A DNA stretch of 30,600 nucleotides from Promethearchaeati archaeon (lineage in GTDB: Archaea > Asgardarchaeota > Heimdallarchaeia > Heimdallarchaeales > Heimdallarchaeaceae). Positions 17,932 through 23,441 of this stretch are shown piece by piece. The stretch's first letter is position 1. The number at the start of each line of letters is the position of its first letter. The notes below the pieces were generated by a model. It did not search any database and was not told where the DNA came from. It saw nothing but the letters and a program-made list of their open reading frames with translations. The stretch lies in NCBI GenBank assembly GCA_013166775.1, contig JABLTJ010000036.1:1-30600 (forward strand), read 5' to 3'. The translations under genes were made by a program, and so were the position numbers.

Positions 17932-18951
17932 TTAACCAAAATATGAATCTAATATAGTTTGTTTTGATAATGGATATGCAGTGAACCCCCTTCTTCGTAA
18001 CTCCGCAGCAAATCTTGTAGTATGTCCATACACTGTGAAAATCTGCTTTGGATCACATTTTTCACATATTTCAATTAACTCTGAAAAATCTGCATGATCA
18101 CTTATTGGAATCCCATGGTCAACTCCCATTCTATATCTATAATTCTTTGATATCCCCCATCCAGAAAAAGCAAAAAGTTTGACGCCATATTTTTCTTTTA
18201 AGTAGGAATAAAACTTATCCCTTCCAGATTTTAAAGGAGCAAAAAGTATCCAATTAGCTTTCTCAGCAAGAATATTCTTCTCCTTTGCTTCTTGATAGGA
18301 TATAGCTTTTATGTAACCTTTTACTCCATTAGATTCAAGAAAAGAATTAATCTTAAAGTTCGCTCCATGCAAGATTATTGTCTCTGAAAGATTACCAAAC
18401 GCATGATAAAGCATTTGAGCTTTACCCAATGGGTAACCCATTAACACAACTGGTATATTATTGTCTAAATATGTTCTAATCTCATCTTTTGTCTGTTCAA
18501 TCACATCATTATAATGTGGAAATTCATATTCAGGAGAACCAAACGTACTCTCTACGATAAGTGTATCACATTTTGTAGGTTCAAATGGTTGTAAGAAACC
18601 TTTATCTCTAATAGAAACATCTCCTGTATAAATTAATTTTCCGTCATTTGAATCTGCAATAAGTGCAGTAGACCCAATTATATGACCACTCGAGACTTGA
18701 TTAAATGAAACATTTTCTTGTGTAAAGTTCTCATAAAATTCCGCGTCTTCATAATTTGAAACAAAATTATTTAGAAGCAATTTTGTAACATGTGATGTAA
18801 TAATGTTCGTCTTTGGAAGCTTCTTGGGTATATGATCTGAATGTGCGTGACTTATAAACGATAATGGATAATAATTCGAATTTGTACTATCACAAGTGAT
18901 CTTCCAGTTTCTTCCTTCAATGTGAATTGCTTTGGACAAATATACTTTCAT
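17932..18951 (-). CDS. Metallo-beta-lactamase/beta-CASP nuclease
   Basis: Motifs SHAHSDH, GHIIGS, YTGD, VESTFG, GYPLGKAQ, SGW and SDHAD. Confidence 0.9.
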   Translation of the reverse strand: MKVYLSKAIHIEGRNWKITCDSTNSNYYPLSFISHAHSDHIPKKLPKTNIITSHVTKLLLNNFVSNYEDAEFYENFTQENVSFNQVSSGHIIGSTALIADSNDGKLIYTGDVSIRDKGFLQPFEPTKCDTLIVESTFGSPEYEFPHYNDVIEQTKDEIRTYLDNNIPVVLMGYPLGKAQMLYHAFGNLSETIILHGANFKINSFLESNGVKGYIKAISYQEAKEKNILAEKANWILFAPLKSGRDKFYSYLKEKYGVKLFAFSGWGISKNYRYRMGVDHGIPISDHADFSELIEICEKCDPKQIFTVYGHTTRFAAELRRRGFTAYPLSKQTILDSYFG

Positions 18952-20370: not shown

Positions 20371-20433
20371 GATATTACCTCATTTTTTCCTTTTATATTG
20401 AATATAAATATTTAATGTTTTTCTACTAAAATA

Positions 20434-21144
20434 TTAGTTATATGAATTTTGATTAATCTCTTCATCGATCTCTTCAATTTCTGATAGAATATCATTTTGA
20501 TTCACGATTTCGTTTTTTATCCAATTTGAAATATAAGTCATTTCAGAGTAACTTGGATGTTTTGTTCGATATTCTATATCAACATCACCAAAAGCTCCTA
20601 TGAAGAGGTGGACTTGGTTATTTCTACCGTCTTCCCAGCAAAGTTCTATACTGTTTTCCAGATTTTTTCTGTAAAGATATCTAAATTTACCAAACCATCT
20701 TCTTTCCAGATAAGATGCTATAATATCTTGATCAATAGGTGGAATGATTTTCATTCTTTTCCAGTTTGAATAAGATAAATTTTCTTGTGTATTGATTGCT
20801 CTATTCTTGATTAGATCTCTAAGAAGTTCTCTAGTTCGTTTACTCCCCAAATCAGTTATTTCATATGTACCATTATCTTTCTTTAGAAGTAATCCTCTAT
20901 CTTGTAATCGCTTAAGTGCTTTAGTTAACTGATGTTGATGAAGGGAAGTTGTTTTTCTTAAACCAGAGAATGTGTAAGAAACTTGTGAATCTGATAAAAT
21001 CAGAAGCAATTGAACCTCAGGTATAGTTAGATAGTTGTAATCTGTATTATAGAAATAATCATACGGCAATTCATCTAATTTTGGTATCGTACTCTGACTC
21101 TTGTCATAGAAAGGTATATCTTGATACCCTTGGTCCATATTCAT
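20434..21144 (-). CDS. Winged helix-turn-helix (MarR/HxlR-like) protein with an uncharacterised C-terminal domain
   Basis: FSGLRKTTSLHQHQLTKALKRLQDRGLL.K..NGTYEITDLG is a typical wHTH. The N-terminus is Tyr/Asp-rich. Confidence 0.8.
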   Translation of the reverse strand: MNMDQGYQDIPFYDKSQSTIPKLDELPYDYFYNTDYNYLTIPEVQLLLILSDSQVSYTFSGLRKTTSLHQHQLTKALKRLQDRGLLLKKDNGTYEITDLGSKRTRELLRDLIKNRAINTQENLSYSNWKRMKIIPPIDQDIIASYLERRWFGKFRYLYRKNLENSIELCWEDGRNNQVHLFIGAFGDVDIEYRTKHPSYSEMTYISNWIKNEIVNQNDILSEIEEIDEEINQNSYN

Positions 21145-21251: not shown

Positions 21252-22988
21252 TTAATCTTCGTTTTCTTCCTCATTCCTCAACTCTTTTGTTGTGGCCGCA
21301 GAAGTGGGATGTAAGTAAACCTCTCCATCAAGAATCGTGTAAGGTATCCTTCTTTGATCTATCCATGAAGCTGTTTCTCTGAACTCTTTAAACATATCAT
21401 TGCTTACAATCATTGCATTCTCCTCTTCTGCAAGTCTTAGTATGAATTTATCTCCATCAACTCTAGCAGGAAGCATTTTCATTGCACCATCTTTTACTAG
21501 TTTATCTAATCGTCTTTGATTGTCTATTTGATACCTTAAAGCTGCATCTGCAACAGTTACAATCTTCTTGAAATTCGCTCTACTTAATCTATTAATCATA
21601 GCTTCAATATTATTTATTTTTGGCTTGTCACTAGAGCCTTTCTCTTCCCAAGCAATGTTGCTACCATCTAGAATAACTGTATCTAGAGGATATATTACTT
21701 CGGGAAATTGCCTTTCTGAATCTAATCTACCCTTGGATGATAATCGCTTTATAACGTCTCTAGAGAAATATATGATCCCAATCAGCATAGAAGCAAAGAT
21801 GATACCATAAGCATAATATAGATTCATCCCATCTGAAATCTCACCCATAGGATATATGATGATAGTTCTTATGATGGATGAGATTAACGTTGAGTACCAT
21901 TTAGTTTCCGTTATGGTTGTCCACTCAATCTCTATCCAAAATCTTAAGTTTGCAGCTCCTTCGGTCGTTGAGTTTGCATCTACAGTGAAGAAATGTACCC
22001 CTGAGCTGACTTTGATAATATTAATCTCTCCATTCTCATATTCCAATTTTTCACAATCTAGTCTTGGTGCAATAAACAGTGATTCATCTTCTTCATTGTC
22101 GACTGTAAATGAGATAACATAAGTTTCTCCCATAGTAGCATTCGATGGTATTTCATAACTATCCAAATTCAAATAGGGGTTAACAATGATATCTAGCGGA
22201 TCGCTAATACCAATTATCTGAACTAAAGGTTCATCAATCGTTCTATATGAATACGAAAAAGAATATTTCTTATAGAGATATATATCAGGATCAAAACGTA
22301 TATTGCCTTGATATGTTTCTCCATCTGTTAACTCTAATTCAAAAACATCTATGTAGATTTCGACAGAACCTATTGTACCTGAACTTTCAATATTTGTTAG
22401 AGAAACATTTGTAACTGTTGAACCACCAATGTTAGTTATCGCGTAATTCACTGCGTTACTCTCATTTCTGGTCAGAAAAGAAGGATTCTCAGGGAAAAAC
22501 ATTCTTACTCTCCCAACAGGAAGAATGGTTAATTCAAATGTCCTTTGAAGTTGATATGTGTCTGTTGTAGAGCTATTTGCCAATGCATTTACAGAATAAG
22601 TACCTGCATTTAGACTATTGAAGTTTGACCAGATAACGGTTTCATTAACGTAATCTGTTGTTAGAACAGGAATGGTTTTCTCATAAATTAATGAGTCAGA
22701 AGCGGATGTAATATTAAAATAAATGTCAGAATCTGGAAGAAGTGAAGAATCATTTTCATCAACAAATCTAAAATGAAGTATTAAATCATCCACTCCTCTT
22801 GTTATAAAGCTTGAATTTAGTAATAATTCAAAAGTCGCATTTCTTGATTGATCGAAATAGTAATTATCGTTTGTTGTTCCTAGATTCCTTTGGTCCCCTA
22901 AAGTAGTAATTGGATTCATGAAGCCAAACAGCAGAATGAAACCGAAAATAACTAAATTTACTCTAGAGGACCATAACCTCCTAAACAT
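21252..22988 (-). CDS. Type I membrane protein: signal peptide, Ig/CARDB-like ectodomain, TM helix, cytoplasmic Zc3h12a/Regnase-like NYN (PIN-fold) ribonuclease
   Basis: Signal VNLVIFGFILLFGFM; 10 N-x-S/T sequons before the TM (YYAYGIIFASMLIGIIYFS, then RDVIKR); after it VILDGSNIA, VAD, DGDKFIL, IVSNDMF and WI..RR. TTG at 22991 is followed directly by ATG at 22988. Confidence 0.85.
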   Translation of the reverse strand: MFRRLWSSRVNLVIFGFILLFGFMNPITTLGDQRNLGTTNDNYYFDQSRNATFELLLNSSFITRGVDDLILHFRFVDENDSSLLPDSDIYFNITSASDSLIYEKTIPVLTTDYVNETVIWSNFNSLNAGTYSVNALANSSTTDTYQLQRTFELTILPVGRVRMFFPENPSFLTRNESNAVNYAITNIGGSTVTNVSLTNIESSGTIGSVEIYIDVFELELTDGETYQGNIRFDPDIYLYKKYSFSYSYRTIDEPLVQIIGISDPLDIIVNPYLNLDSYEIPSNATMGETYVISFTVDNEEDESLFIAPRLDCEKLEYENGEINIIKVSSGVHFFTVDANSTTEGAANLRFWIEIEWTTITETKWYSTLISSIIRTIIIYPMGEISDGMNLYYAYGIIFASMLIGIIYFSRDVIKRLSSKGRLDSERQFPEVIYPLDTVILDGSNIAWEEKGSSDKPKINNIEAMINRLSRANFKKIVTVADAALRYQIDNQRRLDKLVKDGAMKMLPARVDGDKFILRLAEEENAMIVSNDMFKEFRETASWIDQRRIPYTILDGEVYLHPTSAATTKELRNEEENED

Positions 22989-22998
22989 CAATTGACAC

Positions 22999-23021
22999 TT
23001 CTATTCTATTCTATTCTATTC
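22999..23021. repeat. Pentanucleotide tandem repeat (TTCTA) x ~4.6
   Basis: ttctattctattctattctattc lies just upstream of the membrane RNase start codon. Confidence 0.8.
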
Positions 23022-23110
23022 AAGACTTATTTAGTTTGTCAATATAATAAGTTTATCTAGTAATATCTGTTTTTCTCCTAAATAAATTTCTGAAAAGAAA
23101 AAATAATGTA

Positions 23111-23441
23111 ATTGGACGATGCGAAAATACCCCTGATTCTGTTTGGAAGCCGTCAAGGACCTTCCTGGCAACATTCGTCTAAGCACTTTACCCGGCTCAA
23201 AGAGCCCTATTTAAGCTTGCTCCAAGATGCTTGGCCGTTTCATCGTTCCCTATATTCTCCTCAGCAAATTATCTCAATAATGTCACCATTATCTTCATCG
23301 CATCATTGTCTCGGAATATAGGACGTGTCGTTTCTGTTCCATGAGCCACACTCTCGCATGGTGGAAAGTTTCCACATCTGATAGAGGAGTCAGGAGGTTC
23401 CTCAGTTTTAAACCGATGGTTGCCCTTTCGCTTCGTCCAAT
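23111..23441 (-). ncRNA. rnpB: Archaeal RNase P RNA
   Basis: Minus strand shows P1 ATTGGACGAAGCGAAA/TTTCGCATCGTCCAAT, CR-I GAGGAACCTCCTGA pairing with CR-V ACAGAATCAGGGGTA, plus ACAGAAA, TGAAAC, GGAGCAAG and AGACGAATG. It is a GC-richer island. Confidence 0.93.

Follow-up and report, generated by a model that had tools for sequence, protein, structure and literature searches.

The stretch of DNA analysed here (the window) comprises positions 1 to 30,600 of the forward strand of contig JABLTJ010000036.1, which belongs to a Promethearchaeati archaeon of the family Heimdallarchaeaceae, order Heimdallarchaeales (GenBank assembly GCA_013166775.1; 3.85 Mb in 115 contigs, estimated completeness 89%). 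The window is AT-rich, with a GC content of about 32%. On its minus strand lies a gene, hereafter the NYN gene, whose product is predicted to combine an N-terminal signal peptide, a large beta-sandwich ectodomain, a single transmembrane helix and a C-terminal NYN ribonuclease (RNase) domain of the Zc3h12a type (Table 1). An original prediction, made from the letters of the sequence, had described this product as a fusion of a receptor with a ribonuclease. The open reading frame (ORF) list gives 21252..22991 for the gene. The conserved M-x-R-R N-terminus of the orthologues aligns with the ATG at 22988, which sets the start and leaves 578 amino acids (aa) plus the stop codon, as originally proposed; the TTG at 22991, one codon upstream, is an unlikely alternative start. 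PF11977 (RNase_Zc3h12a) is the sole significant domain in a Pfam scan of the protein, with CARDB below threshold, and none of the NCBIfam models matches it. A search of the window's own genome recovered one copy, at 67.4 bits for PF11977. The gene is genuine and single-copy, and the fusion of ectodomain, transmembrane helix and NYN domain is real, being kept in full-length orthologues across the Heimdallarchaeales.

Table 1. Features of the NYN gene and of the region upstream (window coordinates). AF2, AlphaFold2 model; pLDDT, predicted local distance difference test score.
Feature	Position	Strand	Residues	Basis
NYN gene, whole	21252..22988	(-)	578 aa; stop 21252-21254	ORF list, 67 homologues, M-x-R-R alignment
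Signal peptide or signal anchor, N-terminal	22899..22988	(-)	aa 2-31	Hydropathy peak 2.04, AF2 helix 2-25
Ectodomain D1, beta-sandwich	22521..22844	(-)	aa 50-157	AF2, pLDDT ~90
Ectodomain D2, CARDB/ASH-like beta-sandwich	22179..22520	(-)	aa 158-271	AF2
Ectodomain D3, membrane-proximal beta-sandwich	21846..22178	(-)	aa 272-382	AF2
Transmembrane helix	21747..21821	(-)	aa 391-415	Hydropathy, AF2 helix 391-421, positive-inside statistics
Basic juxtamembrane linker	21687..21746	(-)	aa 416-435	
Zc3h12a-type NYN (PIN-like) endoribonuclease domain, predicted	21306..21686	(-)	aa 436-562	
Acidic C-terminal tail	21255..21305	(-)	aa 563-579	27% mean identity, low pLDDT
5' region of NYN gene	22989..23116	(-)		15 orthologous upstream regions compared
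Archaeal RNase P RNA gene (rnpB), directly upstream	23117..23435	(-)		Rfam RF00373, 163 bits

The PF11977 match covers aa 436-559 and scores 64 bits against a cut-off of 23 (E-value 1.8e-17), so the profile check suggested with the original prediction came out clearly positive. Three motifs, DGSN (442-445), DGD (512-514) and SND (530-532), show little or no variation among 40 orthologues and supply the putative catalytic positions D442, N445, D512/D514, S530, D532 and E536. We aligned the family profile to the solved domains or chains of ZC3H12C, ZC3H12B and KHNYN. In this alignment, D442, N445, D514 (with D512), S530, D532 and E536 correspond to D141, N144, D226 (with D225), S242, D244 and D248 of Regnase-1, the catalytic residues of the latter being those listed by Matelska (2017; PMC5499597). 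The position of D248 is occupied here by an invariant Glu. Hence, the acidic motifs are intact, as had been claimed, and align with the Regnase-1 catalytic set. In 26 diverse members sampled from the wider family, the catalytic positions are at least 92% conserved, and several Arg and Lys residues of the domain are conserved too. Mean pairwise identity of the NYN domain is 82%.

A separate AlphaFold2 model of aa 425-579 reached a pLDDT of 90.9. Foldseek placed this model closest to ZC3H12C, ZC3H12B, Regnase-1/MCPIP1 and KHNYN (TM-score 0.70-0.73, E-values down to 4e-9), followed by PRORP1/2; identity to the eukaryotic structures of the Zc3h12a group is 22-26%. Slightly closer in structure, with TM-scores of 0.76-0.79, are bacterial PF11977 proteins of the ESM Atlas. 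These matches do not show a special affinity to eukaryotic NYN domains. In the cytoplasmic part, Pfam finds only PF11977, and no CCCH finger, KH, ubiquitin-binding, kinase, KEN, pentatricopeptide repeat (PPR) or other RNA-binding module. Altogether, motifs and models identify it as a genuine NYN domain of the Zc3h12a type, from the prokaryotic branch, and we consider it probable that it is active as an RNase. A prediction of the cytoplasmic domain in two copies, as a homodimer, scored 0.00 and was used neither for nor against a dimer.

In the Kyte-Doolittle profile, hydrophobic segments stand out at two places, about aa 10-30 and aa 391-415, and each coincides with a helix in the full-length AlphaFold2 model, which was built on a 40-sequence alignment (mean pLDDT 81). 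The signal region runs from an RR n-region through a 15-aa hydrophobic core to T-L-G ahead of D. Such an N-terminal signal is found in nearly all family members, and we infer that it is cleaved. Ten N-x-S/T sequons lie between the two hydrophobic segments, where composition would predict 5.7, and none follows the transmembrane helix, where 0.9 would be expected. For six of them, conservation among 40 orthologues is 82% or more, though the domains that carry them are only 37-48% identical; the mean per orthologue in this set is 11.6 sequons in the ectodomain and 0.5 in the cytoplasmic part. Moreover, Lys and Arg residues average 0.44 in the 15 aa before the helix versus 3.61 in the 15 aa after it, and this excess on the inner side is found in 72 of the 80 family members counted. 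The distance from the end of the helix to the start of the NYN domain has a median of 22 aa in the family, and the linker appears flexible, with low pLDDT at aa 420-428.

By prediction, the protein thus has the traits of a type-I single-pass membrane glycoprotein, namely a signal, one transmembrane segment, an N-out/C-in orientation and sequons on the outside. Hydropathy, the modelled helices, the positive-inside bias and the placement and conservation of the sequons argue for some 360 extracellular, glycosylated N-terminal amino acids and for an intracellular NYN domain, a conclusion that does not depend on cleavage of the signal. It is accordingly the cytoplasm, at the membrane, where we think with good confidence that the protein acts. 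These data bear out most of what had been read from the sequence: the signal peptide, recovered as a hydropathy peak and an N-terminal helix; ten sequons, none of them past the membrane; one transmembrane helix with a positive-inside flank; and an NYN domain placed by the predicted topology in the cytoplasm and not outside.

The ectodomain is modelled as three beta-sandwiches, each with a pLDDT of about 90, so that the label Ig-like given to it earlier was a fair one. D1 carries the conserved sequons N51, N80, N93, N116 and N139 (78-100% conservation). D2 contains the CARDB match that had been anticipated; it is present at aa 170-236, but with an E-value of 0.013 it stays below threshold. The family profile also matches a 1771-aa protein made of HYDIN/ASH/CARDB Ig-like repeats. 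D3 is the fastest-evolving part of the protein, with a mean pairwise identity of 37%. Foldseek searches with the full-length model returned only generic tandem Ig, macroglobulin, integrin and pilin arrays (TM-score about 0.15) and no specific ligand-binding relative. An Atlas structure search with the ectodomain gave weak matches (TM-score 0.4-0.5) to archaeal and bacterial CARDB/DUF11/COG1361 'S-layer family' and adhesin-like surface proteins. A protein-language-model search of the same region gave scores of 0.81 or less, which is the range of chance. The ectodomain is, in this sense, a stalk of beta-sandwiches of the surface-protein type, with no recognisable small-molecule sensor fold.

A word-based search recovered 67 homologues with 40-85% identity, most of them full-length and nearly all with PF11977. 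An exhaustive profile search then added about 30 divergent representatives, and every full-length one keeps the signal, the transmembrane helix and the C-terminal NYN domain. Finally, 399 Asgard species genomes were searched. Full-length orthologues are present in 39 of the 46 other Heimdallarchaeales genomes: 26 of 30 in the window's own family (f1), 1 of 1 in f2, 2 of 3 in f3 and 10 of 12 in f4. Named carriers include Ca. Heimdallarchaeum aukensis and Heimdallarchaeota LC_2. Outside the order, the 399 genomes yielded NYN-only matches and no full-length orthologue. True loss of the gene in four genomes of the same genus was considered but is not supported. All four also lack an rnpB hit, and in the two that were checked the contigs end inside the neighbouring winged helix-turn-helix (wHTH) gene, for which reasons the checked absences are assembly gaps. 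In a FastTree phylogeny of 173 NYN domains (139 columns, only partly resolved), the Heimdallarchaeales family forms one clade with a support of 98. This sequence-based evidence indicates that the gene is vertically inherited and single-copy within one order.

Two observations on individual orthologues are worth recording. A sister-family genome (G010) carries two paralogues of the gene (L022:6564-8330 and L023:4162-5865), one of them divergent beside psmB-psmA-wHTH. In addition, the orthologue P0009 is annotated as a 648-aa protein (L005:6001-7947, L011:1306-3252) that begins within the RNase P RNA gene (L005 5747-6062). Its real start is probably a downstream Met, giving about 581 aa, and the public record is then misannotated.

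Substitution rates were estimated against the two closest genomes, for which synonymous divergence (dS) is unsaturated. The ratio of non-synonymous to synonymous divergence (dN/dS) is 0.22-0.25 for the whole ectodomain (dN about 0.11), ranging from 0.13-0.17 in D1 to 0.37 in D3 (dN 0.17-0.20), and 0.04-0.06 for the NYN domain (dN 0.02). For the neighbouring wHTH, psmB, psmA, metallo-beta-lactamase (MBL) and PIG-L genes, dN/dS lies between 0.07 and 0.16 and dN between 0.011 and 0.076. Thus, the NYN domain is as constrained as core proteins such as the proteasome subunits. Non-synonymous change in the ectodomain is about five times as fast, although selection on it is purifying overall. We also observed that contigs from metagenomes and metagenome-assembled genomes (MAGs) repeatedly break in the part coding for the ectodomain (genomes G018, G034 and G038; window 21735-22766 in run X3) and that the NYN part assembles cleanly, which hints at strain-level microdiversity of the ectodomain.

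The same layout occurs elsewhere among archaea. In a Promethearchaeota MAG, the protein L032/P0231 (L032:3656-5668, minus strand) consists of a signal peptide, a pyrroloquinoline quinone (PQQ) beta-propeller (PF13570, 256 bits; PF13360, 177 bits), an Ig-like segment, a transmembrane helix, a basic flank and PF11977. P0109, from the Thermofilaceae, has a signal peptide, an ectodomain of about 220 aa, a transmembrane helix and PF11977. Both share the order of parts of the NYN protein, and differ from it in that their ectodomains are unrelated and their NYN domains fall outside the Heimdallarchaeales clade. To judge from these sequences, two other archaeal lineages have independently put unrelated ectodomains on a membrane-anchored NYN domain, which is the modular pattern expected of receptors.

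Other relatives are built differently. Regnase-type RNases had been described as normally soluble; this stands for the characterised eukaryotic enzymes, but not as a general rule, since about 14 of the 115 best non-family NYN hits have predicted transmembrane segments. Most of these are anchored through N-terminal helices, namely P0105, P0170, P0121, P0172 (Hodarchaeales), P0113, P0133 and P0135; among them, P0105, P0170, P0172, P0133 and P0135 are Asgard proteins without a large ectodomain. Two, L032/P0231 and P0109, have the receptor-like layout. Most other long Asgard NYN proteins are soluble. In P0111/L030 (L030:63-2738) and P0197, of about 900 aa, a C-terminal PF11977 domain is fused to an N-terminal STAND/AAA_16 NTPase. 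These look like conflict-system effectors, STAND being a typical context of signal-activated effectors. A further Asgard family (f31) has a widespread soluble protein of about 170 aa in which an N-terminal zinc-finger-like motif, C-x2-C...H-x3-C, precedes a PF11977-type NYN domain with DGNN instead of DGSN (L025:3911-4408, L026:3364-3879, L028:3732-4241, L029:3207-3704). The order of zinc finger and NYN is the reverse of that in Regnase.

How does the NYN protein compare with known systems? With Regnase-1/MCPIP1 (ZC3H12A), ZC3H12B-D, KHNYN and N4BP1 it has in common the PF11977 family, the fold and the catalytic Asp, Asn and Ser positions, and a metal-dependent mechanism is expected. Those eukaryotic proteins are soluble and combine NYN with CCCH zinc-finger, KH or ubiquitin-binding modules, whereas the archaeal protein combines it with a signal, three beta-sandwiches and a transmembrane helix; after aa 562 there is no zinc finger, only the acidic tail of 17 aa, which sets it apart from the Regnase/ZC3H12 subfamily. 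The overall layout is that of IRE1, also a type-I single-pass protein with a non-cytoplasmic sensor and a cytoplasmic RNase, which can cleave membrane-localised mRNAs in regulated IRE1-dependent decay (RIDD). However, IRE1 uses unrelated kinase-KEN domains, which Pfam does not find in the cytoplasmic part of the NYN protein, and a different luminal fold; the likeness is one of analogy and not of homology. In bacteria, RNase Y, through an N-terminal transmembrane helix, and RNase E, through an amphipathic helix, are held at the inner face of the membrane, and RNA decay is thereby spatially controlled. Their catalytic domains are of other types (HD/KH or S1/DNase I-like), and they have no substantial extracellular domain. 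PIN.COG4956, with four transmembrane helices and a PIN-TRAM unit (Matelska 2017; PMC5499597), is another membrane-attached nuclease of the PIN superfamily, but like the N-terminally anchored archaeal NYN proteins it has its anchor at the N-terminus and no large ectodomain. The census of the superfamily lists archaeal and bacterial PF11977 proteins as of unknown function and mentions transmembrane helices for PIN.COG4956 only (PMC5499597). The next-closest fold is that of PRORP, which belongs to the same structural group in the PIN-like classification (PMC5499597). PRORP has PPR repeats and zinc-binding domains that are absent here, with no PPR or PRORP match in the Pfam scan; its fold scores are lower, and the genomes in question encode RNase P RNA.

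The surroundings of the gene vary between families. In the Heimdallarchaeaceae, the order is rnpB, the NYN gene, a 236-aa wHTH gene, psmB, psmA and an MBL-fold nuclease, with an M48/HtpX-like membrane peptidase further off. The distance from the RNase P RNA gene to the NYN gene downstream of it is about 128 bp in the window and 90-130 bp across the family. This adjacency was found at 8 of 8 family loci tested and, by coordinates, in 25 of the 26 Heimdallarchaeaceae genomes with both genes, the exception being a contig break. It is absent in f2-f4, which retain the NYN gene. In f2, the NYN gene stands divergent beside psmB-psmA-wHTH without rnpB, and in f3 and f4 none of the rnpB, wHTH, psmB and psmA neighbours is beside it. 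No operon partner is conserved throughout the order; in f2-f4, the genes next to the NYN gene encode an alkaline phosphatase, a MOFRL-family (glycerate kinase-like) protein, an AlaX-like protein, GyrB and an ABC transporter. The wHTH neighbour was considered as a dedicated partner and rejected: its family occurs in 74 of the 83 genomes of the class, some of them from families that lack the NYN gene, and in f3 and f4 the two genes are not neighbours. Because neighbours differ between families and the wHTH family is class-wide, the NYN protein has no dedicated operon partner, and its description as a stand-alone, one-component unit is upheld. The Heimdallarchaeaceae neighbourhood is probably an inherited gene order.

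Based on these observations, we propose that a Sec-type signal peptide would export the first 360 or so amino acids, which would fold as three N-glycosylated CARDB/DUF11-like beta-sandwiches. The single helix and a basic linker of about 22 aa would hold a metal-dependent Zc3h12a-type NYN endoribonuclease at the inner face of the membrane. Since the NYN domain has no accessory RNA-binding domain, substrates would be chosen mainly by location, for instance mRNAs under translation at the membrane. The ectodomain, through its state, would determine how active the RNase is; the most plausible route is a clustering of receptors that brings NYN domains together, a likely switch in view of the analogy with Regnase-1, which is reportedly dimer-dependent. 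No dedicated operon partner would be involved, the protein acting alone. We give about even chances to the general proposal that this is a stand-alone membrane RNase and that the state of its ectodomain governs its activity or its position. The narrower claim, that the ectodomain controls the RNase and a signal from outside triggers cleavage, is tentative and falls a little short of that.

Several points weigh against this proposal. Ligand, partner, RNase activity and transmission of a signal across the membrane are all hypothetical for the NYN protein. The transmembrane helix and linker contain no motif conserved across the wider family except YF at the inner interface, and so a transmission mechanism is not visible. 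What the ectodomain weakly resembles are structural archaeal proteins of the surface or S-layer type and not known sensor folds. The eukaryotic analogy is a distant one, because it is bacterial PF11977 proteins, lacking an assigned function, that come closest to the NYN domain in structure. Finally, the gene is conserved in the manner of a housekeeping gene, single-copy and nearly universal, which would suit a constitutive enzyme just as well.

Such an enzyme, a constitutive housekeeping endoribonuclease localised at the membrane like RNase Y or RNase E of bacteria, continuously degrading or processing RNA there, with an ectodomain that only anchors or positions it in the envelope, for example under an S-layer, is the main alternative, which we consider unlikely but the one to be taken most seriously. 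It would account for vertical inheritance as a single copy throughout most of the order, for an NYN domain as constrained as proteasome subunits, for the housekeeping neighbours in the Heimdallarchaeaceae (RNase P RNA, psmB-psmA and the MBL-fold nuclease), for an ectodomain resembling structural surface proteins and for the lack of a conserved signalling motif in helix and linker. However, tethering needs only a transmembrane helix, as in the N-terminally anchored Asgard NYN proteins, and an unregulated RNase without a domain for RNA-binding specificity would probably be harmful. A conserved ectodomain of 360 aa with six conserved sequons implies a function of its own. We judge the ectodomain to be functionally important and not a mere anchor, because bare helices do the tethering elsewhere, because the six sequons and the distal domains are conserved, and because unrelated ectodomains have been recruited independently to membrane-anchored NYN domains. 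The same protein might instead be latent, stored at the membrane and freed by regulated proteolysis of the helix or linker; the candidate protease would be the 820-aa M48/M56-like (M48/HtpX-like) membrane peptidase about 4 kb away, which is syntenic in the Heimdallarchaeaceae, and the flexibility of the linker would fit this reading. This we regard as very improbable: the peptidase gene is not adjacent and is unlinked to the NYN gene in f2-f4, the linker has no conserved cleavage motif, and the short stand-alone NYN hits within the family clade look like fragments at contig ends.

The relationship to RNase P raises a further reading, in which the substrates that the NYN domain processes at the membrane would be tRNA precursors or the transcript of the neighbouring RNase P RNA gene. 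The close, same-strand position of rnpB in nearly all Heimdallarchaeaceae and the rank of PRORP1/2 directly behind the Zc3h12a group among the fold matches would fit it. Nevertheless, f2-f4 keep the NYN gene without the adjacency, and the region is syntenic within the family, so that the adjacency may be inherited order. Moreover, between the two genes there are a T-run terminator and a conserved TATA-like element, and the protein has no PPR-like or other tRNA-binding domain. Little probability, in our view, attaches to this link. A role as an antiviral or abortive-infection sensor, whose ectodomain detects virus attachment or envelope damage and whose NYN domain destroys viral or host RNA, is likewise disfavoured and in our opinion improbable. 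Regnase-1, KHNYN and N4BP1 restrict animal viruses (Matelska 2017; PMC5499597), the fusions of NYN with STAND resemble conflict systems, and both the fast non-synonymous change of the ectodomain and the contig breaks within it, with their hint of strain microdiversity, could be read as signs of conflict. But the ectodomain dN/dS reflects purifying and not gene-wide diversifying selection. In PADLOC-DB 2.0 no model matches the protein, and the sole match among the neighbours is the wHTH, a weak one. There is no defence island and no adjoining mobile element, the surrounding genes being housekeeping ones, and a single-copy, vertically inherited, near-universal gene contrasts with the patchy occurrence of defence genes.

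The dependence of a membrane RNase on the state of its ectodomain, which we prefer to these alternatives, can be extended. The NYN protein and its two independent look-alikes might represent an undescribed class of archaeal one-component transmembrane receptors with RNA cleavage as output, similar to IRE1 and RIDD. The glycosylated ectodomain would then report the state of the envelope, secreted glycoproteins or cell-cell contact, and clustering would turn on the RNase, which would cleave mRNAs during their translation at the membrane. This broader idea is speculative, and we hold it to be rather unlikely. In the literature on archaeal and Asgard NYN/Zc3h12a RNases and on transmembrane ones, we found no description of the ectodomain-transmembrane-NYN architecture, in agreement with the earlier remark that no characterised archaeal example was known. 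What the present study adds are the independent look-alikes, the lack of a dedicated partner, the analysis of rates and the rnpB adjacency throughout the Heimdallarchaeaceae.

Prokaryotic outside-in signalling is known to end in phosphorylation, second messengers, transcription factors or proteolysis. To our knowledge, eukaryotic IRE1 is the only receptor with RNA cleavage as its direct output. The NYN gene is a conserved, single-copy candidate for an RNA-cleaving receptor in the Heimdallarchaeales, an order that includes close archaeal relatives of eukaryotes, and at least two other archaeal lineages appear to have built the layout independently. Should the RNase prove active and under the control of the ectodomain, this would be a new signalling logic for archaea and a testable analogue of membrane-localised mRNA decay in the lineage that gave rise to eukaryotes. 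If it is constitutive, it would still be the first proposed archaeal membrane-tethered RNA-decay enzyme with a known catalytic fold. At about 165 aa, the cytoplasmic domain is small and lends itself to testing.

Some features of the surrounding DNA complete the description. Comparison of upstream regions revealed a T-run after rnpB and a conserved TATA-like element, TTATTA(A/T)A, about 50 nt before the ATG of the NYN gene. Just before the start codon, the 5' leader contains the repeat (AATAG)x4 at 23001-23020 on the minus strand. The orthologous loci have a non-repeated stretch rich in AATA(A/G) at this site, and the repeat is therefore a local expansion; metagenome contigs tend to break there. 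Metatranscriptome data (two runs of one study) from a strain 96-97% identical gave contigs at 20403-21107, in the wHTH gene, and at 23127-23406, in the RNase P RNA, and none over the NYN gene, although contigs cannot show absent expression. The wHTH contig ends at 21107, 37 nt inside the 5' end of that gene (start codon at 21144), and gives no evidence either way on co-transcription. Downstream of psmA, the MBL-fold protein of 339 aa (17932-18951, minus strand) has as its best match TIGR04122, 'ligase-associated DNA damage response exonuclease', with 152 bits (cut-off 325), and matches RMMBL weakly; it may be a nuclease of DNA repair and not a beta-CASP enzyme acting on RNA. Lastly, Rfam identifies at 2504-2592 on the minus strand a tRNA of 89 nt that is not reported by ARAGORN and may contain an intron.

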